Positions 9,628 through 52,169 of a DNA stretch of 64,000 nucleotides are shown here, piece after piece (the stretch's first letter is position 1; every line of letters starts with the position of its first letter). The DNA is taken from positions 32,118,001 through 32,182,000 of the forward strand of contig NC_086108.1 in the NCBI RefSeq assembly GCF_963921235.1, read 5' to 3'. The position numbers were made by a program, and so were the translations under genes. The notes beneath the pieces were generated by a model, which worked only from the letters and a program-made list of their open reading frames with translations, was not told the DNA's origin and did not search any database. Origin of the DNA: Mobula hypostoma. Lineage: Eukaryota.

Positions 9628-9749
9628 TGTTAAAAGGTCTTACATATATTCCATTAACACGTAAAGGGCATGAACTGTATGATGAAATTCTCAGGTGATG
9701 TTGGAGAACAGGAAGGAAAAATGATGGAGCTTACCTCCCCCGCCCCCCA

Positions 9750-10920: not shown

Positions 10921-11145
10921 CAATAGTGTTAATATTAATGGTTTCAAAAAGTGAAATAACTGATGTGTTACATTAAGAAACACAAACACACACAATTGTA
11001 AGATTTTTGTGCACTACCTGGATTTTTGCTACTTCTAAGTGCTGCAGATGTGCATAGTTAAAATGCCCATGAGATTGAAATCATAGACGTTTACTTAATT
11101 AACAAATTAGAGGTCATAATTAGAAGACTTCAAGCAGATACCTAC

Positions 11146-11216
11146 TTTGCAAACCCAATGAAGTCTTCATGCTTTGTATTGATATAAGACAACTGGATAT
11201 CAATCAATAACAATAC
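11146..11216 (-). CDS. DNM3: Dynamin exon 12 equivalent (VLLLIDIQLSYINTKHEDFIGFA)
   Basis: LLIDI..SYINT.HEDFIGFA; 71 bp; AG and GTAGG boundaries. VLLLIDIQ is most like mammalian DNM3 as recalled. Confidence 0.94.
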
Positions 11217-12275
11217 CTAAAGAAAACAAAATGTTAAAATTTTAACCATATTTTGTGCATTTAACCTTAGTTATTAAGCAAAGCAATCAGGCAAACTGAA
11301 AACACTCCTGTAGATTCTGATAAATATTTTCTCTGTTTCTGAAATGAAGCTCAAATGTAAAACAACATTTTGTTGAGTTGACCTATTTTGTGGCACTCAG
11401 GTACCAGTGAAACTTGCAGATGTACAAGTGGCATAATGAAGAGTCAAATATTTTAATGATAGCATCCAACTATGTATTAGGATCCGAGAAGTTTGCAAAT
11501 AAAAACAATAGAACACATTAATGTAAAAGCTGAACACTGTGGATTCAGCAATTCTGAAATAAAAACAAAAAACTGCTGGAGATATTCAGTAGGTCTCCAT
11601 GGAAATAGAACCAGAGTTAAAAGTTCAGATCAAAGACCCTTCATCAGAAGGGTTTCTTCGTGTTAACTCTAGGATGTTAATGTATGCTCGAACAGCACAT
11701 CCAGAAAGGTGGCACTTCCTCCTGCTGTTTAGGGCAAGGCACTCATGACAGCTGCACTCTTGAAGATATGAAATGGGACTACCTTGGAATGGACACCTTA
11801 GAGGAATGGGCCAGTTGGGCCAAAGGGCATATTTCCATATTGTATAACTTAATGATTCTATGGCAAAATATATTTGCAATTGGACAATCATTGTACCAGG
11901 CATCAAGGGACAGTGAAAAAGTTGCCTTGAAGACTGTTCATACTGAACAAATCATTATACAGTTCAAGGTAAATGCAGAATAAAGTGCAACAGCTACGAA
12001 GAAAGTGCAGTGTAAGTCAACAATAAGAAACAAGATCATAATCAGGTAGATTGTATGGTCAAAAGCCCATCTTATTGTATTAAGAAACCATTCAATAGTC
12101 TTGTAACAGCAGGGTAGAAACAGAACAACCCAGGTTTAGATGCACGATTGGAGGGCTGCCCTTCTAGAGGAGACTTTTATGGAATAGGTCATCCTGACCA
12201 GACTCGTTCTGTCCTTTAACCAACCTCATGAGTATCTCCAGTAGTTTCTGTTCTTTGTTAAGAAAGTACACTAAC

Positions 12276-12362
12276 TTGATTCTTTGTCCTATCTTCTCGT
12301 TCTCGTATGTAGCTGAAAATAACCCTTTCTGTCTCTTCCTGCAGTTTTGGGTACCTGCCCAG
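12276..12362 (-). CDS. DNM3: Dynamin exon 11 equivalent (LGRYPKLQEETERVIFSYIREREDRTKNQ)
   Basis: YP.L.EETER....IRERE.RTK.Q; 87 bp; acceptor TTTACAG, donor GTTAGT; phase 0 on both sides. Confidence 0.93.
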
Positions 12363-14293
12363 CTGTAAAGATAAATAACATTTACTTAAATTCTTTAAGG
12401 TGAAAATTCATTCATCTAACGAAACCACTTATCTTAATATTATCAAAAGTACAGTATGTTTACTACACTTAATACTAATTGGTTTCTATGATTGTTTATG
12501 TAATTCCCCACAGATGGCCGATTCAAAATTCAAAATGAAGACATCCTGATGTATGAACTATGTTCTAAATACAATGAAAATGTATTTTAGAATGTGCTAA
12601 ATAGAAGAATGATGTTCACAAATAAATTTTCAAAGAAATTTATTTGTTAAATATTTTATATGGATGGAAAGATTCAACTACAGCTAGAAAAGATTTGGTT
12701 TCATCTGAACAACTTCAAGTTGTCAAATAGTGGCTATCATATAGAGTAAATGTAAACTTCCATCATAAAACTGAAATGAAATTGCCTCCTTTTTAAAACG
12801 AGCTGTCGAATCCAAATGTTACCAAGAAGCTTATGGCACTATCTATAACACACATCAAACATGCTCAACGTGAAGGAAAATTCATCCGATGGTGGAAACC
12901 TAAAATAAACTCACAGAAAGTGCTGCTGATACCAAGCAGGTGAGGCAGAAACTGTTGAGAGAGAAACAGAGTTAATGTTTCAGCTTGACGTAGGTCAGAG
13001 AAAACATTCTCAATCAAAACAATAATGTTTTCTCTCTTCACAGATGCTGCCTGGCTTATGAACTTTTCCCTTAACTTTCTGTTTATGGATTATTATGTTA
13101 AGCAATGGAACACAAATAATATTTTCACTATTATTAAAAGTAGTGAAAGCTTACAGACACCAAGATTCATCAATGGTTAACAAATTGAATATAAAATAAA
13201 TCTGCAGAATATTAGACAAGGGATTATTTACTCAGGAACTGAATAGGCCAGAATGTACCATCAACAGCTATTCATTTTTGCTTACTGCTTGCATAAATAT
13301 GAGCTACAGACCAACTTTTTGCCAAACTATTGATGTCTGTCTACGTGTAATCCAAAGGGGCATGGACCTGAAGTGGCAATAGGACATAGTGTGACAGATG
13401 TCAGTTGGACAGTTCAGTCAAGTGTCATTATCAAAACAGTCAAACATTGTAAATTCTGAATGCCCAGAATTTTCAGAAACATTTAAAATCTAAACAAAAA
13501 AAAACTCTTCTTTATTGTTAGTTTAAAACATAATTTCACAAGAACTCTTGAAAACATTGTTAGCTGCAACAGTGGTTTTCCCAGATATTCTCCAACACTA
13601 GACTCAGCAGATTAAAGCTTGGAAAGAAGCAGCAAATTTGGTCACCTGAATGAGGATCAGCTGCAAGGGGGAAAAGTGAGAATTAAGTAGTTTACATTTT
13701 TTGAATTAGTGAGCTTGTTTTCACATTTTTAATTAGTTTTGGGATTTGGGTGTTCATATGGATGTCTCAAACTTCCTGATACATACAAGTTGTCAATTCA
13801 GTGTGAAACTAATGCTGCTTCCAAACAAACTGTGGCCTACCACAATGCCTTGTAATTTCCGATAGCCTTTTATGGTCGTTGCTTACTTTAGAACTAGAAA
13901 TTAAGATTATAAAAATATTTTTATTTATATATTCCAAAAATATATTTGCCCATAAAGGCAGTACTTATTCCACAAGGGAATATACTCTACAGTAACCTCT
14001 GCAACTAAGGAAGCCAAAGGCATGACAAACAGACTTGAACAGCGAATCATATGTGTTTTCTTTGTGGACCCTTACGTGTATCTCAGGTGAGGCATTTATG
14101 TTAATTTTTCCTAGCAGAGCAGTACTGAATAAAGATCATCCCAGATTATGGTAAGAGCTCCACTCCTGTGAAATTCTCATAACTCAAACATTTCACAAAT
14201 TGGAAGTGCAACAGCAAATGGTGTTCCCACATGGCAGAAGATGCCTAGAGCCCTACAACAGCCAGCAAATCGTATAATTGTATCTATGGACTA

Positions 14294-15723
14294 CAGTGCT
14301 GATAAAACGTATTCAACTCCTTGGAAGCTTTCATGTTTTATTGTTTTACAACATTTAATCACAGCGGATTTAATTTGGCTTTTTTGACACCGATCAATAG
14401 AAGAGAGTCTTTCATGTCAAAGTGAAAACAAACCCCTAAGTGATCTAAATTAATTACAAGATTGCATAAGTACTCACCCCTTTCAAGTCAGTATTTAGTA
14501 GATGCACCTTTGGCAGCAATTACAGTCTTGAATCTGTGTGGATAGGTCTCTATCAGCTTTGCATATCTGGTTACAATTTTTTCTCATTCTTCGTTACAAA
14601 ACTGTTCAGATTTTCAAGTCCAGCTACAAATTCTCAATTGGATTGAGGTCTGGACTCTGACTTGGCCACTCCAGGACATTAACTTTATTTGTTTAAGCTA
14701 TTCCTGTGTAGCTTTGACTTAATGCTTGGGGTCATTGTGTTGCTGGAAAGCAAACCTTCTCCCAAGTCGCTATTTTCTTGCAGACTGCATCAGGTTTTCC
14801 TCGGATTTCCCTGTATTTTGCTGCATTCATTTTACCCTCTACCTTTACAAGCCTACCAGGGCCTGCTGCAGTGAAACAACTCCACAGCATGATGCAGCCA
14901 CCACCATGCTCCAATGTATGGATGGTGTGTTTTGGATGGCATGTGGTGTTTGGGTTACACCAAATATAGCGTTTAGTCTGATGGCCAAAAATCTCAATTT
15001 TGTTTTCATCAAACCATAGAACCTTCTTCCAGCTGCCTTCAGAGTCTCCCACATGCCTTCTGGCAAACTCTAGCTGAGATTTCATTGGAATTTTTTTCAA
15101 CAGTGGATTTATCTTTGCCACTCTCCCACATAAAGCTGCATCTGGTCAAGCACCTGGGCAACAGTTGTTGTATGTACAGTCTCTCCCATCTCAGCCACTG
15201 AAGCTTGCAACTCCTCCAGAGTTGTCATAAGTCTCTTGGTGGCCTCCCTCTCTAGTCCTCTTCTTGCATGGTCATTCAGTTTTTGAGGATGGCCTGCTGT
15301 AAGCAGATTTACAGCTGTGCTATATTCTTTCCATTTCTTGATGATTGACTTAAAAGTACTCCGAGGAATACTCAGTGGCTTGGAAACTTTCTCGCATCCA
15401 CCTCCTGATTTGTGCATCACAAAAACCTTTTCGTGGAGATGCTCGGAGTGTTCTTGGTGTAGTTTTTGCCAGGATATTGACTCACCAGCAGTTGGACCTT
15501 CCAGATTCAGGTGTATTTTTACGACAATCAATTGAAAGACCTTGCCTGCGCACAGGTCTCCAAAAACAGATCTAATTATGTGACTTCTAAAACCAATTGA
15601 CTGCAACAGTGATGATTTGGTGTGTCATATTAAAGGGGGTGAATACTTATGCAATGATACAATGTTGTAAAGCAATAAAACATGAAAACTTCCAAGAAGG
15701 ATGAATACTTTTTAGAGGCACTG
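14294..15723 (-). mobile_element. Tc1/mariner (IR/DR, Sleeping Beauty-like) DNA transposon with decayed transposase
   Basis: TA|CAGTGC...GCACTG|TA ends; imperfect terminal inverted repeats of about 60 bp; transposase motifs WKKVLWFDENKIE, HGGGCIMLWSCF and WPSQSPDLNPIEN (~14630-14680). Confidence 0.92.
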
Positions 15724-19270: not shown

Positions 19271-22200
19271 TTTTTTGTAATTTATTTTTTTTTTGAATTT
19301 CATCATCAAACATTTCCATAAGATGTATTTCAGATACTGTACATATATATCATATAATCATACTTGTCACAAATCTCCACATAGTTTTTAACTGAGGTAT
19401 ACATTTATAGAAAGGAGAGGAAAGAAAGAACAGTTGAAAGAAGAAAACTGTACAGAGTAGGGAGTGATTTTTTTTACAACATATTCATTGACTTGTGAGA
19501 ATAAAATCAGGCCTATGAGGTGTTATGTAGTGAAACCATTTTTTCCCAGTATGAATAAAATTGTTCCAACTTATGACTAACAGATGCTGTTATCTTCTCC
19601 ATTTTGTAAATGTCCATTGTAATTTCCATCCATACATTTAAAGTTGGGCTCTCCTGAGATAACCATTTCCTGGTAAGGGTCTTTTTACCAGCCACCAGCA
19701 GTACATTCATTAAATATTTATCTCTTTTCAACCATTCTTGAGGTATATACCCAAAATATATGGTCTTACTCTCTAAGGGTATTTCACACTTAAAGATGTC
19801 TTGCAGGGCATTATGTATCCCACTCCAAAGTCTTTGATAACGGGGCATTCCCAGAAAATATGATAATGGTTTGCATTTTGATTTCCACAATTTCTCCAGC
19901 AAGCAGGAGAGTTACTATTATAATGGGATTTCTGAGAGGGTGTAATAAAATACCTTATCAAGTTTTTCCACCCGAACTCCCTCCATTTCTGTGAACTGGT
20001 ACACTTCCATTGATACCTCCATATTATTGTCCAGTCTTCCTCAGATATTATTATCCCTCCTTCCTTCTCCATTTTGTTTTAATGTATGAAGTCCAATGTG
20101 TTTTAAGATTTGACAAACCCTTATAAATGCTTGAAATTATTCTACTACCGTTGTCTGAATTATACGCTTTTCTAAATAGCTTTATCAGATATGTACTTGC
20201 CTTGGTTACATTTTTAACTGTCCTATTAACATACTGTCTCATCTGTAAATACTGGTAAAAGTCTTGTTTTTCTAATAAGTGTTTCTCTTTGACCATTTCA
20301 AAACTGAATAGTGTTCCTTCTTTCATTATATTGCAAATAGCTGTTATTCTTTTAGCTGTCCAGTCCTTAAATCGAGCACCCAGTTTATTTGGCGTAAAAT
20401 CCGAGTCATATGCACACCATTTAAGAATTGCAATGTCTCTCTCTAGCTTATATTCTTTTATAATAGTTTTCCATATTTTAAGAGTCCACTTCACCCACGG
20501 ATTGTCAATATTATTTATGTAACTTTGTAGGTTGTTATCAACCAAAATTGCCTGTATGGGGATGGAAAGTATCCTCTCCTCAATGTTTTTTCATTGAGTG
20601 TCATATGATGGGTTGCACCAGCATATCACGGCTTTCAACTGTGCTGCAAAATAATAATCTCTAAGAGAAGGTAGGCCACATTCCCCCCTTTTCCTTGGCT
20701 AATTGCAAAGTTTTGAGACGAACCCTAGGCCTTTTACCTTGCCATATATATCTTGATAGCATCTTGTTCCATTCATTGAATTGATTTTGGTTAATCTCTA
20801 TTGGTAGGGTCTGTAAGAGATACAGTAGTCTGGGCAGTATATTCATTTTAATAGATTCAATCCTTGAACTGAGACCAAGAAAAGGAATTAGGATCCATCT
20901 TCTTACATATCTTCCTTAATTTTTTTATATATAGGCTGATAATTGTATTCTGATAATTTTGCCAAATCTTTTGGCATAATGATGCCCAAATACCTGACGG
21001 ATTCTGTTTGCCATGCCAAAGGATTATCTACTTTCAATTTCTCTTGGTGGGCTATAGTTATATGAAAGTAGTGGGTTTTTATCTATGTTGATCTTGTATC
21101 CTGATAATTGGACATATTGTTCAAAGGATTGCATCAATTTAGGTAAAAAGTATGTTGGCTGCCCTAGAGAGATCAAAATGTCATCCACGTAACAGGCCAA
21201 TTTATGCTCTGTCCCTTTAATAGTAATTCCCCTGATATCTTCATTTTGTCTGATGTGTTGAGCTAATGGTTCCAGATATAATGCGAAGAGTAGTGGTGAC
21301 CATGCACAACCCTGTCTCGTGCCCCTTTCTAGGGTAAAACTATTAAGACAAATATCCATTGATTCTAACCCTGGCAGTAGGATTGTCATATAGTGCTTGT
21401 AGTTTTAATAATTGTGTCATGTAGACCAAATCTATGTAAAACTCTGTAAAGAAAATTCCAATTAACTGAATCAAATGCCTTTTCAGTGTCCACGCTTATC
21501 ACTATTGCTTCAATTTCATTTTTTTATATGATCCATAATGTGAAGTGTCCTTCGTATATTGTCTTGTGTTTGGCGTTGTTGTATAAAACCTGTCTGATCA
21601 TTATGTATCAGTGTGAGTAGAAACTCTTCTAATCGTTTCGCCGCGATTGAGGTAAATATTCTATAATCCACATTAAGAACAGATATTGGTCTAAATGACC
21701 CACATTCCATTTTCTCCTTGCCTTCTTTCAGTATAGCTGAGATTATCGCCTCCTTCCAGCTGGGTGGCATTTGTGCCTTAATTAGGGTCCAGTTCAGTGT
21801 GGGGAGTAAAACAGAAATCAACTCACTTCTAAACTCTTTATACCACTCTGCTGTATATCCATCTGATCCTGGTGATTTGCTTAATTTAAGCCTACTAATT
21901 GCAGTTTTTAGTTCAGCTTCAGTTATGTCAGCAGTCATCATTCTATTTTGTTCTTTGCTTAAAGTGGGTAACTCTAAAGAATTCAGGAAGGTGGCAATTT
22001 GGGTCATGCTTCCCCCTGGAACTTTGGAATATAGAGTTTTGTAAAACATTTCAAGAGCTTCTTGAATTTCACTTAGCTTATTTTTTTATCACTTTTGTTC
22101 TCGGATCCTTTATTCTATGAATTGTATTTTCTGCTTCTTTTTTCAGTTTCCACGCCAGTATTTTCATAAATTTAGATCCACTTTCATAGTGTCTCTGTTT

Positions 22201-24734
22201 CAGAAACATTAATTTTTTTTCTAATTTCTTGTGTAGCCGAACTATTAATTTCATTCCTAATTTTTTTAATTTCCTCTAGTGTATCCTGTGCCAAACTCAA
22301 TGTGTTTTTTTTTCTAGTTCCTTCAGCTTATTTTGTAATTCCTCTAATGTTCTATTCCTTATTTTTCTCTTATATGAAGATATCATTATAATATTCCCTC
22401 TTAAGACAACAGCCTTCAGAGTATCCCATAGAAAGAGAGGTGAAACCTCTCCATTATCATTGAATTCTAAGTAAAGACCAATTTCTCTTTTAATTTGTTC
22501 CTTAAAATAGGGATCGTTGAGTAGATTTGAATTTAGTTTCCAAACAGTATTCTTTGGTTGTAGGTCAAAATCAACAGATAAATATATAGGTACATGGTCA
22601 CTTACATCTATCGTCCCAATCCCACAGGTGATTATTTTGTCTCTATCTTTTCCAAATGTTATGAAATAGTCTATTCTTGTACATATGGAATGGGGGGGCA
22701 GAATAATGAGTGTAATCCCTTCTGTCAGGGGAAAGGTCCGTCCATATATCAATTAGACCAACATCTTCAAAAAGAGTGTTAACTTTCTTATGTAAGGACT
22801 TTGTTTCATAAGTTTTTCTATTGGAAGAGTCTAACTTTAGTTGTAATGGTAAATTTAAGTCTCCCCCACATAACAAGAGACCTTCTGTTTCCATTACCAT
22901 AATATTAGTAATTTTTTGGAAGAAACTAATATCACTTTCTGGGGGTGCATATATATTCAATAAACTAACTGGATTTCCATCTATATTCCCCCTTACCAGA
23001 ATATATATCTGCCCTCCTTATCTCCCATTTCGAGTATTTTTTCAAAATTTAGCTTACTTGAAATGAGAATAGCAACTCCTCGTCTATGTCCTGATTTACA
23101 TGAGGAGAAAAACAAATTAGTGAAGCCCATTCTCTTTAATTTTCCATGCTCATTATCACTTAAGTGAGTTTCCTGTAAATATACTACATGGGCTTGTTCT
23201 TTTCTCATTTTTGATAGAACTTTACTGCGCTTGACTGGATTCAACAGCCCATTGACATTAAAAGAAATAAATTTTACTTTGTCCTTAGCCATGTGTATTT
23301 ATCTGTTAGTATATCATTGAAATTTGCAGAATTTAACTTATTCGATCTACTCCCTGAACAAGTAAGAGCAAATAATTTAAAAAAGGTAACGAAGGTGTGG
23401 TTCCAAGGCTGGGGTTTCTAGATGACCCTGGGTTGAGCTAGAAGAAAAGTCTAGCTGTGGGGGATAGCCCCTCCTACCTGTGTGTTGAGGGCTCCCGCTG
23501 CAGTACCTATAAAAGTAAGTAAAAAAAATCGATGTCCATTACACAGAAATGATTTCCCTGAGTATTCCTCCCATGTATATATTCTCATTTAGGTGGGGAA
23601 AAAGGAATGAATAAATGAATTTTTAAAAATTGAGTAAAATCCACATTATAATACGTATTTCTCGAGATAGGTATATCACCGTCTATTTTTGCTTCTGTTT
23701 AGCTTATCAGCACTTTAAAAGTTAGCCAAACCAAGGGACAACTGCTCAGCCAGACTTTCCCTTGGTTTGACCACGCTAATGGACAGTCCTCTGTTGTTCA
23801 TGTCTGTAGTCGCCTCCTCCACTGTCTGGTACAGTTGCATCCCTTCTTGGTAAAATACTCTCAGTTTAGCAGGGTACAAAGTTTGGAATGTAATCTTTTC
23901 TTGCCTTTTCGTTTCGCTTCAGAATATTCCTTCCGTTTCTGTCGGACCACCGGGGGGTAATCATGATCGAAGTATATTAACTTCCCGTTGCAAAAAACCC
24001 TCTTCTTACCCCAGGCCCTTCGTAGGATCTCCGCCTTGCTCTTGAATCAAAGAAATTTAAGTACTATTGAGCGCGGTTTACTTTCTCTGTCTCCGGAGGC
24101 CCGCTGGACGAGCGAATGATGTGCCCTCTGAATTTCAATCTCCATAGACTGGGGAATCTCCAGCACTTCCCGCAGCAGCTTGTCTAGAAAGTCCATCATC
24201 GACAATCCCTCCGCTCCTTCGGGAACATTATAAATTCTGATATTTTTCCATCGCGATCTTCCCTCCTGGTCAAGCAATTTATTTTCCTGTTGATTTAAAA
24301 TTTTTATCGCCTTACTTCGTATCTGTTCCACATTTTGCACGCGATCTTCCATCTTCTCAATTCGAGTCTCTGCCACCGCTATTTTCTGATTGACGTTTGC
24401 GAGCTCTGACTTTATATCATCGAATTGCTGCTTTATATCTTTTTGGACTTCCCTTATCTCTTCCAAAATCCTTATCATATTTGCCGCTTCGCCTGCACGA
24501 GGTCCCGTGTCAGCCTCGCCGCCACGCGCACGTGTAGGAGAGCCATGCGCTGTACCTCTCTCTTCCATAGGCTTCGCAGTGATGCTTTTTTTAAGATCTC
24601 CATTCTTTCTCCTCATTCTTGCCCTCTTATCAATTCAGATATTTTCCAAAGATCTTAACGGGGCAAAGTATGCATTTTTCCGGAGGAGCTGTTGATTTAA
24701 GCTGCCAATCTGAACAATGATGTCACCGGAACCA
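19271..24734 (-). mobile_element. Full-length L1/Tx1-clade LINE (ORF1 ~24616-23700, ORF2 ~23292-19513, both disrupted)
   Basis: ORF1 coiled coil plus EGRSRWKNIRIYNVPEGAE; ORF2 APE (ISFNVNGL, YLQETHL, GGDLN, SDH), RT ([15 protein letters not shown]), C-terminal CWRNC..H..WEC; AATAAA and A-rich tail; 13-bp TSD AAAGCACTTAATT (19258-19270, 24735-24747). Confidence 0.95.
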
Positions 24735-25879: not shown

Positions 25880-26520
25880 TATGAGAACACAGAACAGTAC
25901 AGCAAAGGAAATGCCCATTGGCCCATGATGTCTGTGGCAACCATGATATCAATCAAAACTAGTCGCATCTACCTGTACATGTCCAGTGTCCCTCCATTTG
26001 CTGCTGTTCATGTGCCTGTCTAAATTCCCATTAAATGTTGGCATTGTATCTGCTTCCACCACTTCCTCTGGCAACACATTCCAGATACCAACTGCTCTTG
26101 AGTAAAAAAAACTTGCCTTGCAAATCTCCTTTAAACCTCCTTCCTTTCTCACTTTAAATCTAATATTTGACATTTTCTTCCGGTGTAAAACAAAACTGAC
26201 CACCTATCCTGTCTATGCTTCTCATAACTTACATACTTCAATCAAGTCACCCCTCAGCTAGCAACATTCCTGAGAAAACAAAGTTCTTCTTTAATACTTC
26301 GTCCTGACAAAGGGTCTCGGCCTGAAACGTCGACTGCACCTCTTCCTACAGATGCTGCTTGGCCTGCTGCATTCACCAGCAACTTTGATGTGTGTTGCTT
26401 GAATTTCCAGCATCTGCAGAATTCCTGTTGTTTGCGTCTTCTTTAATACTGACAACTTCTCAAGTGAAGCTCTTTTACATCCTTTCCAAAGCCTCCACAT
26501 CCTTACTATAATGTAGTGAC
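25880..26520 (-). mobile_element. CR1 LINE 3' fragment (hosts the ribozyme-bearing insert at 26299-26436)
   Basis: ORF 25949..26203 (RAVGIWNVLPEEVVEA); CR1-type tail agaacacagaacagtacagc. Confidence 0.75.
26299..26436 (+). mobile_element. Short non-autonomous Penelope-derived element (hammerhead module plus 3' tail)
   Basis: Nearly identical to the 3' end of the PLE at 31972-32105; gtcCTGACAAagggtctcggcctGAAAcgtcgactg; perfect 14-bp TSD TCTTCTTTAATACT (26285-26298, 26437-26450). Confidence 0.88.
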
Positions 26521-28200: not shown

Positions 28201-28829
28201 AGGAATTAATAAATAAGAAAAAAATAAGAGAAAGTTACGAGATAATTTACCTTGCCCAAGCCTGATCTCGCCTCTGCCAGATGAGCCAAACCAACAGCTT
28301 CTTGCTCATATTCAGCAAGGAGCTGTTGGTAGCAGTGAGTTATTACTACTTATTAATGAAGTACAGAATTAAAATTTCTGCTTGCTTTGTTTCTGGATTC
28401 CATGATACTGACTTGCCGGTAAAGTGCAAATCCAAAATGGAGCCCATTGTCACAACAAGGTCAGCGTATTGAACAGTCAGAACAAACACTAATAAAATGA
28501 CTGAAGAAACCATTTTGACAGCCAGCAATGCCTGCCTCAAGCTTTCTTAAGTATATTGAATGCTTCCTAAGGCTCCTGGCAATCAGGAACATTCAAAAAC
28601 TATGAATATAATCAACTAGTTTGAATAACTTAAAATTTAAAAAGTTAAAGCATGAAGTCACAATCTTCTTAAAAAGTATTTTAAAAGTTTAAAGCAGGCT
28701 CAATTAATTGGCAAAACATACATTAACTCATACTTTTTCTTCAATGGGCTTTCTGTATCTGCAACATATTTAACTTAGCTAAACTTCAGCAAGTAGCTTC
28801 CCCAATACAACTGCTGGGACTTTCAGCAA

Positions 28830-29039
28830 CACACACAAAATGCTAGAGGAACTCAGCAGGCCAAGCAGCATCTGTGGAAAAGAGTATAGTTGATGTTTCG
28901 GGCCAGGCAGGACAGAAAGTCTTGTCCCGAAACGTTGATTGTACTCTTTTCCATAGATGCTGCCTGGCCTGCTGAGTTCCTCCAGCATTTTGTGTGTGTT
29001 GCTTGGATTTCTAGCATCTGCAGATTTTCTCCTGTTTGT
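28830..29039 (+). mobile_element. Short Penelope-derived element with an inverted partial copy at its 5' end
   Basis: Arm ~28826-28902 is the reverse complement of ~28927-29001; flanking direct repeat GACTTTCAGCAA (28818-28829, 29040-29051). Confidence 0.82.
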
Positions 29040-29254
29040 GACTTTCAGCAAGTTTGGTGCTAATCCTGGTTCCCATGAAGGATTAAACTTGAGAGTGACA
29101 GCACTGAGAACAAACCTGGAACATCTGCATTTGTGGGTAGTTACAAACTTGCCGACCCAAGCACAAATGCCAACAGTTCTCATCTTAGAGTCTACCATCG
29201 TTGTTGTACAAAGGAGATCATTATGCTCTACAACTCAGAGAGAAATCTATAAAT

Positions 29255-30520
29255 TTGCATAAGAACTCAAGGAGGAGCAGGCATAAGCCATCTGGCCCCT
29301 AATCCTGCACCATCTATCAGCAAGATCATGGATGATATTCAGCTTGAAACCCATTTTCCTGCACAATGTCCTTATATTTGAATTCCCTGATAACCAGACA
29401 TTTATCAAACTTTCTCTGAATAATGAACTTCCAGAAATTCTAGGGTCAAAAATTATAACAACCCACTGAACAAAGAAATTTCTCTTCATCTCAGTCCTAA
29501 GTGGCCTATTGCTAATTGTGAAACTAATCTACATCTCTAGACTTCTCAGCCAGGGGAACATTCTCATTGTGTTCATCCTGTTAAACCATACAGAAATTAT
29601 TTAAGTTTCATTGGGATTGCATCCATTTTTCTAAGTTCCAGAGAAGACAGACCAAGACAGAAATGTTATTTCATTTCATTCACCAAACACCGAACCAGTC
29701 TGGTGAATTATCACTACACTGCTTCAATGGTAAGAATATCCTTTTTTTTTGATAAGGAGACCAATATTAGAGGTGAGATCTCATGAAGGTTCTGTATAAT
29801 TACAGTTAATTGCATTCCTGCAAAAAAATCACCTTTCTGTAAAAAAATTACACACTATTTACCTTCCTAATTATTTGCTGCATCTGAATATTAGCTTCCA
29901 GAGTCCAGTGAGCAAGTCACCCAGCACCCTTTGAATATCAACTTTTCATGCACCATACTGAACAATCTTACATTTTTTCCCAGAAGATATTCTTTCTGCC
30001 ATGCTCTTACTACTCATTTCCCTTGTCTAAAGTCCCTTAAAGCTTGCTTACAATATTCGTTACTCACAATCTCACCTAATTTATTGTCAATGAACCTGGA
30101 TATTTGACATTTGGTCTCCTTAGCCAAATCATTTATGTACACTGTGACTAGCTGGGGCACAAACACTGATCCCTGTGGCACTCCATTATTTATAGCCTGT
30201 TAACCTGAGCCAGACCCCTTTACTCCAAATCTGCTTTCTGCATGTGCTATTTCTTAAAGTATTTCAATATACTGCCTTCAATTTCCTGTGAAAATCTAAA
30301 TTCATCACATCCATTGAATCCCCCTCATCTACTTCACTAGTGACAAGAAACTGATAGAATAGTCAAAAATGATTATCCTTTCATAAGCTGATGCTGACTT
30401 TGTTCATCTTATTATTCTTTCTGGGTGCTCTATTATTACTTCTTCATTATAAATTCCATCTTTTTTTCCACCTACTGATGCAAGCTAAGAAGTCAGGATT
30501 TCTCTGTTTTCTCTTTTCCT
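29255..30520 (-). mobile_element. Old, highly decayed CR1 LINE
   Basis: MKRNFFVQWVV-like C-terminus, gatccctgtggcactcc (VPQGS on the minus strand), and a CR1 tail near 29260. Boundaries approximate. Confidence 0.65.
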
Positions 30521-30601
30521 TAATACAAGACAATGCAGTATAAAACAATGGATTATTTAATTTGGCTTGTTTCAAACTAGATAAGTTGGCTTAGTTACAG
30601 C

Positions 30602-31440
30602 CACAAAATGCTGGAGGAACTCAGCAGGCCAGCAGCATTCATGGAAAACATTTCGAGTCAAGGCCCTTCATCAAGACTGGAACAAAAGATGAGAAGTTAA
30701 GTCAAGAAGGTGGGGGAAAGGGAGGAAGAAGTACAAGGTGGTAGGTGATAGGTGAACTGGTAAAGGGGAAAGGTGAAGTAAAGGGCTGGAGAAGGAGGAA
30801 TCTGAGAGGAGAGAGTAGAAGGCATGGAAGAAATGGGAGGAGGAGCACATGGTTAAACAGTCAGAAGGCAGCAGAGATCACAGAGGGGAGACAGTGAGAG
30901 AGGGTTTCACTGAACTCCTGAAGGGAAGATATGAACTTCTTCAGGATAGGCATCCCTGGAAGAGACTTCACAATGTAGTAGTAGCACAAAGACGAGAAAA
31001 TCTGCAGATGTTAGAAATTCAAGCAACACACACAAAATGCTGGAGGAATTCAGCAGGCCAGGCAGTATCTATGGAAACGACTAAACAGTCGACTTTTCAG
31101 GCCAGGACCCTTCATCAGGACTGGAACAAAAGATGAGAAGTTAGATCAAGATGATTGGGTAAAGGGAGGGGCATTAGATCAACAAGGTGACAGGTGATAG
31201 CTGAAACTGATAAAGGGGAGGGGTGAGGTAAAGACTGGGAAGTTGATAGGTAAAAGAGATAAATGTCTGGAGAAGGGGGAATCCAATAGGAGAGGGTAGA
31301 AGATCAAGGAAGAAAGGGAAGGGGGAACATAAGGTTGAAGAGTCGGGGGGGCAGCAGAGAACACAGAGGGGAACATTGAGAGAAGGTTTCACTGAACTGC
31401 CATTAAAGGGAAGATTTAAACTTCTTTAGGGTAGCATCCA
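30602..31440 (-). mobile_element. Head-to-tail dimer of a ~444-bp Penelope-derived unit, each with a hammerhead motif
   Basis: Units ~30602-30985 and ~30990-31440 share the same blocks in order: tail, cccttcatca(a/g)gactggaacaaaagatgagaagtta, purine-rich tract, ggtttcactgaact...ggcatcc. Confidence 0.8.
31086..31123 (-). ncRNA. Minimal type-I hammerhead ribozyme motif (one stem-III change)
   Basis: Minus strand cagtc-CTGATGA-agggtcctggcct-GAAA-aGTC-gactg: both core boxes and a perfect 5-bp stem I. Confidence 0.7.
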
Positions 31441-31971
31441 AGTTGTTTAGCACAAGGAAGCTTGCAGACCAGATGGATATTATCAGTTAGCATATCAAAA
31501 GCGGATCAATGAATAGTTGGAAGATTTGTGTACTCATAGAGTTAGCTCCACAACATTAACTGAGAGTACCTGGGAAATGTGTCTCCTAGAAACTTTCAGA
31601 TCACTTGTGTTCAAAGTTATCTGGAAAATTATTGCATGTGTGTGAAGCCACCCAAGTGGCAAAGAAATGGTATAAATGAAGAGGGAATTTCAGGCTTTTT
31701 AGGAATGATTGAGGAACATCAAGAAGCATGACAGAAACACGGGGTGAACTAGAATCTATTCCTCCACTTTCAATAGCTGTAACAGATGTCGAGTCTGTCA
31801 GCAGCTCATGGGTATGTCTTTTTAGCTTACAAGAATTGTATGAGTGTGTTGGAAATCCTTTGTTTTAGAAATGGTTCTAATTTGTAAGTATTTAATAAGA
31901 TAAAAATCCTTTGAGAGCGGGTGTTGTTTGAATTCAACCATTTATCACTAAAAATAAACAAAATAAATGAA

Positions 31972-34480
31972 AACAACAGGAATTCTGCAGATGCTGGAAA
32001 ATCAAGCAACACACATCAAAGTTGCTGGTGAACGCAGCAGGCCAAGCAGCATCTGTAGGAAGAGGTGCAGTCGACGTTTCAGGCTGAGACCCTTCGTCAG
32101 GACTAACTGAAGGAAGAGTGAGTAAGGGATTTGAAAGTTGGAGGGGGAGGGGGAGATCCAAACTGATAGGAGAAGACAGAAGGGGGAGAGATAGAGCCAA
32201 GAGCTGGACAGGTGATAGGCAAAAGGGGATACGAGAGGATCATGGGACAGGAGGTCCGGGAAGAAAGACGGGGGGGGGGGAACCCAGAGGATGGGCAAGA
32301 GGTATATTCAAAGGGACAGAGGGAGAAAAAGGAGAGTGAGAGAAAGAATGTGTGCATAAAAATGAGTAACAGATGGGGTACGAGGGGGAGGTGGGGCCTT
32401 AGCGGAAGTTAGAGAAGTCGATGTTCATGCCATCAGGTTGGAGGCTACCCAGACGGAATATAAGGTGTTGTTCCTCCAACCTGAGTGTGGCTTCATCTTT
32501 ACAGTAGAGGAGGCCGTGGATGGACATGTCAGAATGGGAATGGGATGTGGAATTAAAATGTGTGGCCACTGGGAGATCCTGCTTTCTCTGGCGGACAGAG
32601 CGTAGATGTTCAGCAAAGCGGTCTCCCAGTCTGCGTCGGGTCTCGCCAATATATAAAAGGCCACATCGGGAGCACCGGACGCAGTATATCACCCCAGTCG
32701 ACTCACAGGTGAAGTGTTGCCTCACCTGGAAGGACTGTTTGGGGCCCTGAATGGTGGTAAGGGAGGAAGTGTAAGGGCATGTGTAGCACTTGTTCCGCTT
32801 ACACGGGTAAGTGCCAGGAGGGAGATCAGTGGGGAGGGATGGGGGGGACGAATGGACAAGGGAGTTGTATAGGGAGCGATCCCTGCGGAATGCAGGGGGG
32901 GGGGAGGGAAAGATGTGCTTAGTGGTGGGATCCCGTTGGAGGTGGCGGAAGTTACGGAGAATAATATGTTGGACCCGGAGGCTGGTGGGGTGGTAGGTGA
33001 GGACCAGGGGAACCCTATTCCTAGTGGGGTGGCGGGAGGATGGAGTGAGAGCAGATGTATGTGAAATGGGGGAGATGCGTTTAAGAGCAGAGTTGATAGT
33101 GGAGGAAGGGAAGCCCCTTTCTTTAAAAAAGGAAGACATCTCCCTCGTCCTAGAATGAAAAGCCTCATCCTGAGAGCAGATGCGGCGGAGACGGAGGAAT
33201 TGCGAGAAGGGGATGGCGTTTTTGCAAGAGACAGGGTGAGAAGAGGAATAGTCCAGATAGCTGTGAGAGTCAGTAGGCTTATAGTAGACATCAGTGGATA
33301 AGTTGTCTCCAGAGACAGAGACAGAAAGATCTAGAAAGGGGAGGGAGGTGTCGGAAATGGACCAGGTAAACTTGAGGGCAGGGTGAAAGTTGGAGGCAAA
33401 GTTAATAAAGTCAACGAGCTCTGCATGCGTGCAGGAAGCAGCGCCAATGCAGTCATCGATGTAGCGAAGGAAAAGTGGGGGACAGATACCAGAATAGGCA
33501 CAGAACATAGATTGTTCCACAAACCCAACAAAAAGGCAGGCATAGCTGGGACCCATACGGGTGCCCATAGCTACACCTTTAGTTTGGAGGAAATGGGAGG
33601 AGCCAAAGGAGAAATTATTAAGAGTAGGGACTAATTCCGCTAGACAGAGCAGAGTGGTGGTAGAGGGGAACTGATGAGGTCTGGAATCCAAAAAGAAGCG
33701 TAGAGCTTTAAGACCTTCCTGATGGGGGATGGAAGTATATAAGGACTGGACGTCCATGGTGAAAATAAAGCGGTGGGGGCCAGGGAACTTAAAATCATCG
33801 AAAAGTTTAAGAGCGTGAGAAGTGTCACGAACATAGGTCGGAAGGGATTGAACAAGGGGTGATAAAACAGTGTCGAGGTATGCAGAAATGAGTTCGGTGG
33901 GGCAGGAGCAAGCTGAGACAATAGGTCAGCCAGGACAGGCAGGTTTGTGGATCTTGGGTAGGAGGTAGAAACGGGAAGTGCGGGGTGTGGGAACTATAAG
34001 GTTGGTAGCAGTGGATGGGAGATCCCCTGAGCGGATAAAGTCGGTGATGGTGTGGGAGACAATGGCCTGGTGCTCCTTAGTGGGGTCACAATCGAGGGGT
34101 AAATAAGAGGAGGTATCCGCGAGTTGTCGCTGTGCCTCGGCAAGGTAGAGGTCAGTACGCCAGACTACAACAGCATCCCCCTTATCGGCGGGTTTAATAA
34201 TAAGGTTAGGATTAGTGCGGAGGGAGTGGAGAGCAGAGCGTTCCGAAGGAGTGAGGTTGGAATGGGGACAAGGTGCGGTGAAGTCGAGACGGTTGATGTC
34301 CCGTCGGCAATTAGCGATAAAGAGATCCAGAGCAGGCAGAAGACCAGAGCGGGGTGTCCATGAAGAAGAGGAGGGTTGAAGACGGGAGAAGGGGTCATCG
34401 GTGGGGGTGGAAGAGTCCTTGCCGAAGAAGTAGGCTCGGAGACGGAGACGGCGGAAGAAAAGTTCCGTATCATGGCGAAT
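31972..34480 (-). mobile_element. Young, 5'-truncated Penelope-like element (RT + GIY-YIG endonuclease)
   Basis: IKPADKG, YLLPKIHK, MDVQSLYTSI, GVAMG, RYIDD, FLDL, VIYCVRCSRCGLLYIGET. ORFs 33926..34654 and 32399..33757 are in the same frame, separated by one TGA. 11-bp TSD AAATAAATGAA (31961-31971, 34481-34491). Confidence 0.95.
32068..32105 (-). ncRNA. Minimal type-I hammerhead ribozyme in the PLE 3' region
   Basis: Minus strand tagtc-CTGACGA-agggtctcagcct-GAAA-cGTC-gactg: CUGANGA and GAAA boxes, stem II, palindromic ACGU stem III, GUC cleavage triplet, 5-bp stem I. Confidence 0.82.
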
Positions 34481-35962: not shown

Positions 35963-38900
35963 GAGGGCGACCTTCACTAATCCGACTACCTGCAATCCGG
36001 TGCGCTTGCGCCGGTCATGCATGCAGCCTGTTACAGCCGTTCCGATCAGTATTCTTACTTTTTTCTTCTTACTTTTTAACTTACGCTATTTTTTGTATTT
36101 TTTTTTCATGGTAACACGTCGAAGCTGCACACTCTCTAACATGCTGGTAGAGAGAGTTTTATTTGGGTTTTTAACGCTAGAAATAGTTACATTCCGACAC
36201 GTCTCATTAGCGGGACAGAAGCATGGTTGCATTGTTTATTTCAGGGACCAGCTGATTGAGCTTATGCCGGCCGGTTTAGCAAGCAGAGCAGCGGACACCC
36301 CTGCTGAAATCTGGAGGAAAACACACAGAGGATGCAGAGGGGGATCACAAAGGCAAGGAAAGAGGATCGGGTCGAGACAACAGAGACTTATGGAGAAGAG
36401 GAGTTCGGTGGGTAATAAAATGGACGAGTTCACAGTGCTAGCCAGGCGTCAGAGAACATTTCGGGAGTGCAGTGTTATGTGTTTCACTGGAACGGGGCTA
36501 CACAAAGACATACCCAATCAAAGCTTTTCCATGGACGGCTTCCAGACCGTTCGGACTGACCGGACGTGCACTGAGAGCGGTAAGCGTAAAGGAGTTGGGT
36601 GCTTACTGTCCTGGTTAACAACGGATGGTGCAATCCGGGTCATATTACGATCGAGGAACGTGTTTGTAGACCGGATATTGAACTTTTTGCTGTTGGACTT
36701 CGGCCATATTCCACCGAGATACAACACTAGGCGGCACGGAAGGTTGTTCCTGCCTGTGGCCATCGAACTTTGCAGCTCCTCCCGTGGAGGGTCAGACACC
36801 CTGTGCCAATAGGCTGGTCCTGGACTTATTTTCCGTCTGGCATAGTTTGCATTTTGTTGTTTGATTGTTTGTGGTTTTTGTATTGCTATATTTATGCTCT
36901 ATTCTTGGTTGGTGCGGCTGTAACGAAACCCAATTTCCCTCAGGATCAATAAAGTATATCTATCTACCTATCGATAATCCGGCACAGATTTCAAATTTTC
37001 CACGCACTGTGATTTCAAATTTCCTGGGCCACCATACCAATCATTGCTTTGGTTGCGCTAGATCTGTTCACGTGTTGGCGCGCTCTTGTAAGCACAGACA
37101 GGCGATTCCTGCTTGTTTTCCTGCATTTATTAATATCATTGGCTCTTTTTTAGCCCCAATTATGACCCCACTGAGTAAAGGAAATGCACCTCGTGCTGTG
37201 AAGCGAAAACACCGCACATTATCCATTAAAGATAAGGTTGAACACTTGAAAAAACTGGACAGTGGTGTATCGGTGAAAACATTGGCTCTTCCACAGTGTA
37301 CGATATAAAGAAACAAAGAAAAACTGCTACATTTTTTTGCTGATAGTGGCTCACAGAAACAGATGTGCGTAAGAAAAACAATGAAAGACGGAAGTTGTTC
37401 AGAACTAGATAAAGTGCTGATTTTAATCTTCGTGTAAGTGAAGGTGTTGAACTATCTGGAGATATGGTGAAGGAACAAGCAGAAGTGTTTCATGAAGAAC
37501 TAGGACTAAATTATGACTGTGACTGGCTTCATCAGTTTAAGCAGTGTCATGGTTTACAGTTTTGTGCAGTGTGTGGTGAGAAGCGTTCAGCAGACAAGGA
37601 AGCAGCAGCAGAGTTTGTTGACGAGTTCGCCAAGTTAGTCTCCGATGAAAAGTTAAGCCCCGAGCAGGTGTACAATGCTGATGAGACTGCTTTGCATTGG
37701 AGATGTACACCAAGAAGAACACTAACAACAGCAGATGCAGAATCACCAACAGGGTATAAGGCATCCAGAGATCATGTGACTTTGCTAGGCTGCTCTAATG
37801 CTGCAGGAACCCACAGATGTAAGTTACTGGTCATTGGCAAAAGATTACGTCCCAAGGCCTTCAAAGGTATGACGAAATTTCCTGTAATTTACCGTGCTAA
37901 CAAAAACATATGGATTCTAGCATCACACTAGAATGGTTTGAAAATTATTTCGTTCCCGAAGCACAAGCTCACTGTGACTCTGTTGGTCTGCACCACAACT
38001 GTAAGATAATGCTTATTTTAGACAACTGTTCAGCACACCCAAAAGCAGAACTCCTGGTAAAAAAACAATATTTTTGTTATCTTCCTGCCACCTAACTATA
38101 CATCATTAATTCAACCTCTGGACAATGGCATACTACGTTCTCTCAAGTCGAAGTATCATTCCCTGTTTATGAGGCGCCTTTTGAGTGCAGTTAATGCTGG
38201 AAGACTGGTAAAGGAACTTATAAAGGATTTTAATATGAAAGAGATGATTTACTGTGCTGCTAATGCTTGGTGGTCTGTACAGCCATCCACACTGAAGAAT
38301 GGTTGGTATAAATTATGGCCAGGTTCAATGTTTGAGTCTGCACCTGGTGAAGACACTGGAAATGACTTTACAGGCTTTAGAGTTTCTAAGGAAAAACAGA
38401 TGATACGTGAACAGCTTTCTTTTGCTCAAGAGCTAACTAATCCTGCTGCCAAGAATCTTGCATCAAGGTTCAATGATGGCAATGTTGAAGAATGGATGAA
38501 TATAGATGAGGATGAGCCTACTGTTCATCATTATACTGACTCAGAAAATGTACGGATGGTTGTACATCCAGAGAAGGAAGATATTGGAGGAGAAAGCAGT
38601 GATGAATATGAGGAAGTTGTAGCAGAGAGACTTTCTATAGACAGGCTAATTAAGTTGACAGGTGAATTGCTGCAAGGATTAGAGCAACGATGTTTTATAA
38701 CTGAGCAAGAAATAATGAGTGTTTATAAGCTGCAGGATAAGCTAATCAGAGAGCGATTAAAATATATGGAACAGCTTACCTTGGAAGATATGTTCAAAAA
38801 AATTGCTAGAAAAAGTGCAACAGGGGAGCTGACACTTCAAAATCCAGTGCCATCAACTTCTGCTCACTCAGATGTGCTGCCACCAACATCAACAGTTTTT

Positions 38901-39323
38901 GAAGAAACTGTTGTGCCAGTTTCAGCACCAGATCCTGATGCTTCACTCACTTTTCAAGATGAAGTTGTTGATGATCCTGACAACCTCAAACTTGCAGACA
39001 TGTAACTTTGCCTGAAAGTATGTTAAATGTCTCACTTTAGAAGCGGAAGTGCTCAACTGTTCTGTATAAGTTAAACTCCTGTACATTTACCTGTACCTTT
39101 TATTTTATCTGTGCCTGTACAGTATATTACTTTAAAATTTCACTTGCTACTCATTTAATATTTCTGTTTCATTATTATCTAACCTGTACTGATTTACATG
39201 ATATTTTAAAGGTACAATGAGGTGGTTAGCTATTGCTTAATTTGATCCTTCTGTAATTCGGCATTTTCATTAATCTGAAACTCCTCAGGTCCCAGTGGTG
39301 CCGGATTAGTGAAGGTCGACCTG
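35963..39323 (+). mobile_element. Tigger/pogo (jerky-like) DNA transposon with decayed transposase (~37162-39005)
   Basis: TIRs TA|GAGGGCGACCTTCACTAATCCG and CGGATTAGTGAAGGTCGACCTG|TA; CENP-B-like N-terminus KRKHRTLSIKDKVE; DDD motifs VYNADET, LILDNCSAHP, IQPLDNGI. Confidence 0.93.
36001..36975 (+). mobile_element. Internally deleted Rex/Babar-L2-type LINE derivative nested in the Tigger 5' end
   Basis: APE N-terminus (NKMDEF...RECSVMCFT) joined directly to the ORF C-terminus (RYNTRRHGRLFLPVAIEL); AATAAA and (TATC)n tail; 7-bp TSD AATCCGG (35994-36000, 36976-36982). Confidence 0.8.
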
Positions 39324-40061: not shown

Positions 40062-40835
40062 GAAACACAAAAAAGTCTGCAGATGCTAGAAGTACAAAGC
40101 AACACACACAAAATGCTGGAGGAACTCAACAGGTCAGACAGCATTTATGGAGATGAATAGATAGTCAATGTTTTTCCTTCAGGACTGAGAAGGGAGAAAA
40201 TGCCAGAATAAGAAAAGGTAGGGAAGGGGAAAGAGGCTAGCTGGAAGGTGATAGGTGAAGTCAAGAGGATGGGAAAGATCCTGAAGAATCACTGGGGACC
40301 CAAGTCACCCCAACCATAATCTATTCCAGCTGCTACCATCCAAAAAACAGTACCGCAGCATAAAAGCCAGGACAGCTTCTTCCACCAGGCCAACAGACTG
40401 ATTAACTCACGCTGATTTGAGTGTACTATGTTACATTGACTATTCTATTTATTACAAATTATTAATTACTATGATTGCACACTGCATATTTAGACAGAGA
40501 CATAATGCAGAGATTTTTACTCCTCATATATGTAAAGGACATAAGAAATAAAGTCAATTCAATTCAAGGGCTGGAGAAGGAGGAATTTGATAGGTGGGGA
40601 AAGCAGACCATAGGAGACAGGGAAGGGGGAGACTTGGGGAAGTAATAGGCAGGTGAGAAGAAGTAAAAGGTCAGAATGGGGAATAAATGAAGGGGAGGGG
40701 GATTTGTTTCACCAAAAGGAGAAATTGATGTTCATACCATCAGGTTGGATGGTATCTAGACGTAATACAAGGTGTTGTTCCTCCACCCTGAAGGTAGCCT
40801 CATCTGGCACAAATGGCGGCCATGGACCGACAAAT
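40062..40835 (-). mobile_element. Old Penelope 3' fragment interrupted by a plus-strand LINE 3' end (~40281-40566)
   Basis: Tail and GIY-YIG C-terminal sequence (ttgatgttcataccatcaggttgg...gttgttcctcc) homologous to 31972-32520; the insert ends in aataaagtcaattcaattcaa. Confidence 0.75.
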
Positions 40836-46821: not shown

Positions 46822-48346
46822 AAATAGACAATAGATGCAGGAGTAGGCCATTTGGCCCTTCGAGCCAGCACCGCCATTCACTGTGATCATGGCTGATCAT
46901 CCACAATCAGTATCCAGTTCCTGCCTTATCCCCATAACCTTTGATTCCACTATCTTTAAGAGCTCTATCCATCTCTTTCTCGAAAGCATCCAGAGACTTG
47001 GCCTCCACTGCCTTCTGGGGCAGAGCATTCCATACATCCACCACTCTGGGTGAAAAAGTTTTTCCTCACCTCCATTCTAAATGGCCTACCCCATATTCTT
47101 AAACTACGGCCTCTGGTTCTGGACTCACCCATCAGCGGGAACATGCTTCCTGCCTCCAGCGTGTCCAATCCCTTAATAATCTTATATGTTTCAATAAGAT
47201 CTTCTACATTCCAGTGTATACAAGCCCAGTCGCTCTAATCTTTCAACATATGACAGTCCTGCCATCCCGGGAATTAACCTTATGAACCTACGCTGCACTC
47301 CCTCAATAGCAAGAATGTCCTTCCTCAAATAAGGAGACCAAAACTGCACACAATACTCCAGGTGTGGTCTCACCAGGGCCCTGTACAGCTGCAGAAGGAC
47401 CTCTTTGCTCCTATACTCAATTCCCCTTGTTATGAAGGCCAGCATGCCATTAGCTTTCTTCACTGCCTGTTGTACTTGCATGCTTGCTTTCAGTGACTGA
47501 TGTACAAGAACACCTAGATCCCGTTGTACTTCCCCTTTTCCTAACTTGACTCCATTTAGGTAATAATCTGCCTTCTTGTTCTTACCAAAGTGGATAACCT
47601 CACATTTATCCACATTAAACTGCATCTGCCATGCATCCGCCCACTCACCCAGCCTGTCCAAGTCATCCTGCATTCTCATAACATCCTCCTCACATTTCAC
47701 ACTGCCACCCAGCTTTGTGTCATCTGCAAATTTGCTAATGTTACTTTTAATCCCTTGATCTAAATCATTAATGTATATTGTAAACAGCTGTGGTCCCAGC
47801 ACTGAACCCTGCGGTACCCCATTGGTCACTGCCTGCCATTCCGAAAGGGACCCGTTAATTGCTACTCTTCGTTTCCTATCAGCCAGCCAATTTTCAATCC
47901 ATGTCAGTACTCTGCCCCCAATACCATGTGCCCTAATTTTGCCCACTAATCTCCTATGTGGGACTTTATTAAAGGCTTTCTGAAAGTCGACGTACATTAC
48001 ATCCACTGGCTCTCCCTTGTCCATTTTCATAGTTACATCCTCCAAAAATTCCAGAAGATTAGTCAAGCACGATTTCCCCTTCGTAAATCCATGCTGACTC
48101 GGACCTATCCTGTTACTGCTATCCAAATGTTTCGTAATTTCATCTTTTATAATTGACTCCAGCATCTTTCACTGACGTCAGGCTAACCAGTCTATATTTC
48201 CCTGTTTTCTCTCTCCCTCCTTTCTTGAAAAGTGGGACAACATTAGCCACCCTCCAATCCACAGGAACTGAACCTGAATCTATAGAACATTGGAAAATGA
48301 TTACCAATGCGTCCACGATTTTTAAAGCCACCTCCTTAAGTACCCT
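46822..48346 (-). mobile_element. Young 5'-truncated CR1 LINE (324-aa open RT segment) inserted in the Gypsy element
   Basis: QHGFTKGKSCLTNL, GVPQGSVLGP, KFADDTKL, LVRPHLEYC; tail atagacaatag. Confidence 0.93.
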
Positions 48347-51765: not shown

Positions 51766-52169
51766 CTGAGGACATTAAAGGCAAGACAAAACATCATTCT
51801 TGATACTGACTGCACTCAGAAAGTCTTTGTACATGTATCACTTAACACATGCACAGCAACTTCCAGCATTTTTCACACAAATATATTTTGCATGCAAAAG
51901 TGGAATTTCTTTTTACATTGTTTTATAAAGAAGAAAACCGAACATTCAAACAGGCAAACTCAGATAAAATTAGATTAAAACATAAAATGTAATGGCATCA
52001 AACTGAATAATTTATTTTTACTGAAAGTATTCATATACTTTCCTAACTGTAAGCAAACAATCCACCCATCACACAGAGAATACCTCTGTTTTTACTGCAA
52101 ATATTGTCGCATTTGGGAAAAAATGGAGCAAGATTAATTACCACTGAGAATAAGTCTGCAGATTTCCCT

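Follow-up and report, generated by a model that had tools for sequence, protein, structure and literature searches.

We identified, on the minus strand of the window (the whole 64,000-nt stretch of ray DNA that was analysed), an old, decayed double copy of a PLE that has been stripped of nearly all of its coding part (Table 1). Two head-to-tail units meet via the native tail–linker–ATG junction of the parent PLE, and each of them consists of an ORF start, a deletion junction, a 3′ UTR, a hammerhead and a tail. The dimer represents a further case of an already published class, and it does not pass as a retrozyme because a complete type I hammerhead is not present in two consecutive units. Most likely it is a rare non-autonomous derivative that was copied in trans.

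Table 1. Features of the dimer locus and of a neighbouring PLE, in window coordinates
Feature	Position	Strand	Description
Target-site duplication, 5′ copy (probable)	31440..31450	-	CTAAACAACTT (minus strand); abuts insertion start
Unit 1	31439-30956	-	First of two head-to-tail units
Unit 1 head	31330..31439	-	First ~110 nt of PLE ORF, from 2 nt before ATG
Unit 1 distal PLE 3′ UTR	31125..31329	-	Pyrimidine-rich; homology to UTRs behind GIY-YIG ends
Unit 1 hammerhead	31086..31124	-	Minimal type I; CTGATGA 31118-31112, GAAA 31098-31095, GTC 31093-31091
Unit 1 sequence 3′ of hammerhead	30985..31085	-	Includes optional ~35-nt tail
Linker	30956..30984	-	Pseudo-LTR tail to ORF start; native to parent PLE
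Unit 2	30955-30602	-	Second of two head-to-tail units
Unit 2 head	30843..30955	-	ATG at 30953; N-terminal 37 codons of PLE ORF
Unit 2 deletion junction	within 30860-30842	-	UTR homology from about 30849-30842
Unit 2 3′ UTR	30681..30842	-	With 31- and 5-nt losses
Unit 2 hammerhead relic	30648..30680	-	TTGATGA; GAAA 30654-30651
Unit 2 3′ end	30602..30647	-	At proximal of two common PLE end points
Target-site duplication, 3′ copy (probable)	30583..30594	-	CTAAGCCAACTT; 7 nt beyond tail end
Young 5′-truncated PLE	31972-34480	-	Another subfamily; 11-bp target duplication

Anatomy and decay of the two units

The original prediction described a head-to-tail dimer of ~444-nt units delimited by hammerheads. 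The dimer itself was recovered by BLAST (72% over 411 gapped columns, E 4e-63) and by a separate alignment in which the units are colinear. Although the GAAA boxes are indeed 444 nt apart, the unit measured head to head is 484 nt long (GC content of 44.8%), with GGATGC at 31439 and again at 30955, and the shorter spacing results from later losses in unit 2. Relative to unit 1, unit 2 carries deletions of 31, 14, 5 and 3 nt; because an ordinary PLE UTR (52826–53002) contains the 31-nt block, unit 1 represents the older state. Expressed in unit-1 lengths, the insertion amounts to ~484 + 409 nt, or 1.8 units. Hammerheads do not delimit it at the DNA level, since its start lies 2 nt upstream of the ATG and its end within the tail.

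The two units differ at 56 of 352 paired sites (16%, K2P 0.18) and by five or more indels, and the divergence is even along the unit (K2P of 0.17 for the head, 0.20 for the UTR, and 0.16 from hammerhead to tail). This distance, together with mutations in both hammerheads, agrees with the earlier view of an aged copy. Tandem Repeats Finder did not report the pair, which it missed because of this decay, and Rfam models yielded no match at E ≤ 1 anywhere in the window. Protein coding in the dimer is confined to the broken 37-codon ORF start; a tblastn search of 30570–31445 with 199 proteins, mostly PLE ORFs, gave no match better than E 0.015, consistent with the predicted absence of RT and endonuclease between the hammerheads.

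The unit 1 hammerhead retains every catalytic-core base, the GTC site and an intact 5-bp stem I. Its 31098–31091 segment reads GAAAAGTC, compared with GAAACGTC in the young neighbouring PLE, the palindrome (stem III) being broken, and position 11.1 is T rather than C. In unit 2, a 14-nt deletion has removed the 3′ strand of stem I together with the cleavage site. The downstream hammerhead had been called dead on account of its TTGATGA and missing GUC, which holds, but the upstream one is damaged as well. In a double hammerhead, cutting at the unit 1 site would need the core of unit 2. Since the palindrome, which forms helix III in the hammerhead dimer (PMC4209133), is broken in unit 1, and since unit 2 has a mutated core and has lost its site, neither site is expected to be cleaved at present. 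Folding of the site-to-site stretch shows no advantage over shuffled sequences (z +1.07).

The UTR of unit 1 contains 78% C+T, as the predicted pyrimidine-rich tract implied, and its homologues lie behind GIY-YIG ends at 52826–53002, 61945–62340 and 40562–40710. The dimer thus carries a 3′ UTR and a minimal type I hammerhead like those found behind the RT/GIY-YIG ORF of EN+ PLEs. Thirteen copies in the window reach the tail, six of which end at the equivalents of 31031–31022, six at those of 30995–30985 and one between, so that two clusters ~35 nt apart hold 12 of the 13 ends. A two-end-point tail of this kind has been tied to two RT start sites in an anole PLE (PMC11167929). Similar to other PLEs, the dimer terminates at one of two RT start points spaced by ~30–40 nt, and it has an ORF start directly behind the pseudo-LTR.

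The window as a whole has a GC content of 39.6% and is dense in retroelements. The young PLE next to the dimer has an RT and GIY-YIG frame that is open over 508 codons with one in-frame stop (33926–33928), and its hammerhead has an intact palindrome at 32100–32077. Its ORF matches RVT_1 (E 5e-05) and GIY-YIG (E 4e-04), both short of the Pfam curated cut-offs, shows 54% identity to full-length PLE proteins and has its best named protein matches, each over part of the query, in rays and sharks, including Mobula (89%), Hemitrygon (83%) and Hypanus (80%). The ORF carries the CX2-5CxxC motif that in Neptune/Nematis-type PLEs lies ahead of the GIY-YIG domain, and belongs to a subfamily other than that of the dimer (UTR p 0.44–0.46), which itself has no coding part to be placed in a clade; no confirmed loci were obtained for it in metagenome contigs. 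Further PLE sequences include a 147-nt end on the plus strand (26298–26444), which is 93–96% like the end of the young PLE, runs from the 5′ edge of the hammerhead and has a 14-bp exact flanking repeat. A fold-back pair of PLE ends occupies 28812–29040, with 94-nt arms that are 84% complementary and 17 nt apart, a 10-bp flanking repeat, and both arms beginning inside the hammerhead. An older plus-strand PLE (52160–54230) has its 3′ UTR interrupted at ~53000/54040 by ~1 kb of inserted sequence, in which coding remnants of an RTE/L2-like RT end survive. Judging by eye from the translations, we tentatively take four other regions to be a decayed L1/Tx1-like LINE (19500–24650, minus strand), a decayed Tc1-like transposase (14732–15624, minus), a decayed Tigger/pogo-like transposase (37300–39005, plus) and a decayed CR1/L2-like RT frame (47191–48168, minus).

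The ORF start and the deletion junction

Profiles were derived from full-length proteins related to the neighbouring PLE ORF, using the 52 among the best 60 that have the first conserved N-terminal motif, and served to score every ATG-started 38-codon stretch of the window (2513 ATG starts). The peptide at 30953, the same that had been pointed out as an ORF-like start, ranked first among the 2513 with the top 5, the top 12 and all 52 N-termini (z of 5.1, 4.9 and 4.0, respectively), and the unit 1 head ranked 5–7 despite its frameshifts and a stop at its twelfth codon. The unit 2 head has lost one codon and has a TGA at codon 31. When anchored at Met, its peptide shares 9 of 38 residues with the PLE protein P0001 and 12 of 38 with P0011, and it ends just ahead of the conserved N-terminal motif of PLE proteins. 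HMMs built from the 52 N-termini did not single out the heads (E of 7.4 and 19 in one model; absent among the top rows in the other). A phmmer search of the 30-aa peptide against 1.84 billion proteins returned two matches, both repeat proteins without PLE features, and the peptide had no match in Pfam and none in the protein atlas (best 0.77). Relatives of the P0001 N-terminus comprised three short proteins, ray proteins bearing the true first 40 residues of the PLE ORF were not obtained, and a 22-nt head pattern had no match in metagenome, genome and viral contigs. The anchored profile, together with the contig pieces that bridge tail and ATG (below), identifies the heads as the ORF start of the PLE, although the HMM and phmmer searches were negative.

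Contigs of four sequencing runs were aligned to 30300–31900 with a likeness cut-off of 80%; 32 contig pieces were listed, and 199,521 further pieces lie beyond these. Read as repeat content, the result for the head is clear: run X1 covers the heads to a depth of ~9,500–12,500, against 9–24 on the single-copy flank, although this depth is not a copy number. All 12 listed non-self pieces over the unit 2 head extend upstream across the ATG, and nine of the 12 bridge from the tail to the ATG with 31 or more letters on each side, which indicates that the tail–linker–ATG sequence is the ordinary pseudo-LTR/ORF junction of the parent PLE. On the ORF side, none of the 12 listed pieces passes 30850; they stop at 30850–30893, eight continuing with 38–341 letters unlike the window and four ending with the contig. 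Because the listed non-self pieces stop there and eight diverge, the head-to-UTR junction is a deletion. Together with the N-terminus profile and the UTR homology, these pieces bear out the proposal of an internally deleted PLE whose 5′ start is fused to its 3′ UTR.

Different junctions in the two units would have spoken against that proposal, but the deletion junction is the same in both, colinear and with no indel across it. Pieces of run X1, which may be the window's own sample, span 31116–31667 without any difference, across the unit 1 junction and the 5′ boundary, so that neither feature is an assembly error. The deletion junction was found in none of the eight informative listed non-self pieces (80% cut-off; exact 95% upper bound ~31%), a weak comparison in which old siblings, diverged by about 18%, might be lost below the cut-off, and BLAST detected no other copy of it in the 64,000-nt window. 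The listed non-self pieces differ from the dimer copy by 10–15% (again with the 80% cut-off), which fits ~9% decay per unit. Parent-family pieces also occur in runs X10 and X11, which were guessed to be RNA and give no evidence of expression; among the listed runs holding matches, none is on record as RNA. We dismissed splicing as the source of the deletion, since visual inspection of the ordinary UTR at 52826–53002 showed no AG ahead of the UTR side.

Target site and origin of the insertion

The target-site duplication is 11–12 bp long and degenerate, with one indel and one mismatch. Matches anchored at the 5′ end have a frequency of 0.011 for the 6-mer and of 0.0005 for 6+4, a criterion chosen after the match had been seen, and the unanchored null gives 0.02–0.12. 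The duplications of three other PLE insertions in the window measure 10, 11 and 14 bp. An empty-site joint linking 30576 to 31440 was found in 10 contigs of run X1 and seven of run X5, and other host-repeat copies are without the whole 863 nt. Owing to the target duplication and these empty-site paralogues, we regard the 1.8 units as one insertion. The host sequence (30540–30582 and 31440–31900) is itself repeated, with a depth of hundreds to thousands versus ~10; the plus-strand frames flanking the insertion site are stop-free and in phase when the duplication is counted once, and the two stop-free stretches have no Pfam match.

One piece from organism B holds the flank and 30 letters of the head, one letter under the bridging rule, with 5 differences in 340, which suggests from the sequence that the insertion is common to organism B and the window. 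The flanks of the two organisms differ by ~1.5%, roughly 1/12 of the unit-to-unit distance. Within the window, the units are each other's nearest copy (p 0.20 versus 0.24–0.46). They have 12 of 243 private columns in common, a count that adds little because an unrelated pair matches it (14 of 248).

That a single insertion holds the identical deletion junction twice implies that an already deleted template was reverse transcribed beyond unit length, unless the same jump recurred. On balance, and with restrained confidence, we favour the explanation that 1.8 copies of a deleted 484-nt PLE were inserted in one step by the RT of an intact relative, from an already deleted, probably rare source RNA (a linear tandem transcript or strand transfer). 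The ~2.6 kb from codon ~37 to the UTR would have been lost from a full PLE, possibly at GTGCTC, a ~6-nt overlap that can be assigned to one side or the other. The remnant would keep the pseudo-LTR/ORF junction that the PLE protein needs and might thereby be copied in trans, by analogy with the anole PLE (PMC11167929). The protein studied there in vitro needs this junction including the first 172 nt of the ORF, and the element belongs to the Poseidon clade and has an ORF that starts inside the hammerhead (PMC11167929), whereas the ATG of the dimer lies ~138 nt behind the cleavage site; because clade and ATG position differ, the 172-nt requirement is carried over to the dimer as an analogy. Reverse transcription would have begun at the proximal end point, traversed the deletion junction twice and halted 2 nt short of the ATG. 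Its template may have been a linear tandem transcript, or the copy may have been completed by strand transfer as in ordinary PLE partial tandems, neither of which would need hammerhead cleavage. Neutral decay would have followed the insertion, and the locus would have no present activity. Against this explanation, the steps at the source copy are drawn from one locus, and the eight informative listed pieces are without the junction.

A linear or strand-transfer template is preferred because partial tandems are the usual product of ordinary PLEs (PMC8557442), because hammerhead mutants of the anole PLE were without effect on insertion in vitro and no reads were reported to end at its hammerhead site (PMC11167929), and because only one of nine Xenopus dimers was cleaved in vitro according to the preprint (10.64898/2026.07.22.740005) and no family was seen here. 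The same observations make it unlikely that the locus stems from a true non-LTR retrozyme, in which a source with two intact hammerheads would have been cut to a 484-nt monomer, circularised and reverse transcribed for 1.8 turns, and for which a family should exist. A circle would explain the repeated identical junctions and the arbitrary 5′ end that were observed, and has been proposed by Cervera and de la Pena as a route to PLE tandems (PMC4209133); the unit is also near reported retrozymes in length and GC content (PMC7229834; 51–972 bp, 10.64898/2026.07.22.740005), and unit 1 still has a full catalytic core. However, neither end of the insertion lies at a cleavage site, the site-to-site stretch folds like its shuffles, minimal PLE hammerheads are reported to cleave poorly even as dimers (PMC4209133), and the junction is missing from the informative listed pieces, even if old siblings may miss the 80% cut-off. 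It is accordingly doubtful that the locus is a fossil of the birth of a retrozyme by internal deletion, that is, of a 484-nt circle of PLE cis-acting parts (UTR, hammerhead, tail, linker and first ~37 codons) that was cleaved as a dimer and went through 1.8 turns of rolling reverse transcription.

Without any deleted source, the RT might instead have jumped twice at the same UTR/ORF-start overlap on a full-length tandem PLE RNA. That no sibling was found in the window or in the eight informative listed pieces would fit such jumps, as would the ~6-nt overlap, the ORF side of which is placed by the profile register. We nevertheless judge them decidedly unlikely, since the RT would have had to hit one point within ~2.6 kb on both occasions and the units agree, at 30717, 30719 and 31127, in UTR variants that differ from most other copies, although such variants could mark a subfamily. 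Alternatively, a deleted family might have inserted twice, the second copy landing in or next to the first, or the DNA might have been duplicated afterwards; either course would accord with the 16% difference and the indels between the units and with the tendency of PLEs to insert at existing copies (PMC6765202). Such separate events seem very unlikely, because a single duplication flanks both units with none seen inside the pair, the inner junction is the native linker of the parent, and the divergence is even along the unit. Reasoning from the anatomy, a copy from ATG to tail may comprise 0.8, 1.8 or 2.8 units, and one of 0.8 units has no linker; a later DNA duplication therefore cannot yield the layout, because the sub-unit copy to be duplicated would be without it.

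Comparison with known elements

Animal retrozymes have been derived from PLE pseudo-LTRs (Li, Clavereau and Pollet 2026, 10.64898/2026.07.22.740005). Similar to non-LTR retrozymes (PMC7229834; 10.64898/2026.07.22.740005), the dimer is a non-coding tandem of few-hundred-nt units with one type I hammerhead per unit and a PLE pseudo-LTR origin, and these retrozymes likewise form mostly short arrays. Its 484-nt unit, present 1.8 times, falls within the ~50–1000 nt expected of head-to-tail retrozyme units. The dimer fails the rule for 'active' retrozymes in the preprint, which asks for two consecutive complete hammerheads found by TRF, and it retains both an ORF start and the junction of an internal deletion, whereas in the preprint a terminal sequence is proposed to have been amplified locally (10.64898/2026.07.22.740005). 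The original prediction raised the possibility that such units had yet to be described in cartilaginous fish. The class as such is already on record, since non-LTR retrozymes were found in the one chondrichthyan sampled, with a mean consensus of 363 bp (10.64898/2026.07.22.740005). Titles and beginnings of abstracts in the literature gave no ORF-start-bearing dimer of a deleted PLE in rays, and the preprint's supplementary tables may hold a similar family.

The dimer is probably a non-autonomous PLE with head-to-tail copies, as is known from MRC1 of Chlamydomonas, a Chlamys PLE (Craig et al. 2021, PMC8557442). MRC1-type Chlamys PLEs are described as active families in a clade without canonical hammerheads (PMC8557442), whereas the dimer is one aged ray locus derived from a PLE with a C-terminal endonuclease. 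With the partial tandems of canonical EN+ PLEs it shares the pseudo-LTR/ORF junction, the hammerhead type and the target duplication, and those elements also have two end points ~35 nt apart and a 30–40 bp tail (PMC4209133, PMC11167929, PMC8557442). Unlike them, the dimer is without RT and GIY-YIG, and its upstream partial copy begins with the ORF start rather than the ORF end. R2 SIDEs, according to PMC6765202, are similarly derived from a ribozyme-bearing retroelement by internal deletion and copied in trans; R2 differs in being a non-LTR element specific to rDNA, its HDV-like ribozyme lying at the 5′ end, and SIDEs are shown families (PMC6765202). By analogy, the dimer may work like a non-autonomous PLE of the MRC1 kind or like an R2 SIDE, and is laid out like a non-LTR retrozyme.

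These observations bear on how PLEs make more-than-unit-length tandems and on whether their hammerheads act in vivo, matters on which PMC4209133 proposes circles and PMC11167929 finds cleavage to be dispensable in vitro. A single decayed locus cannot separate a circle from a linear tandem; two identical deletion junctions within one target duplication are nonetheless a clean marker of more-than-unit-length copying from a coding-free template, and the deletion junction is a ready search key. If ray genomes do hold a family with this junction, it would represent a minimal PLE mobilisation unit in a vertebrate and would allow a direct test of rolling-circle versus linear templates.
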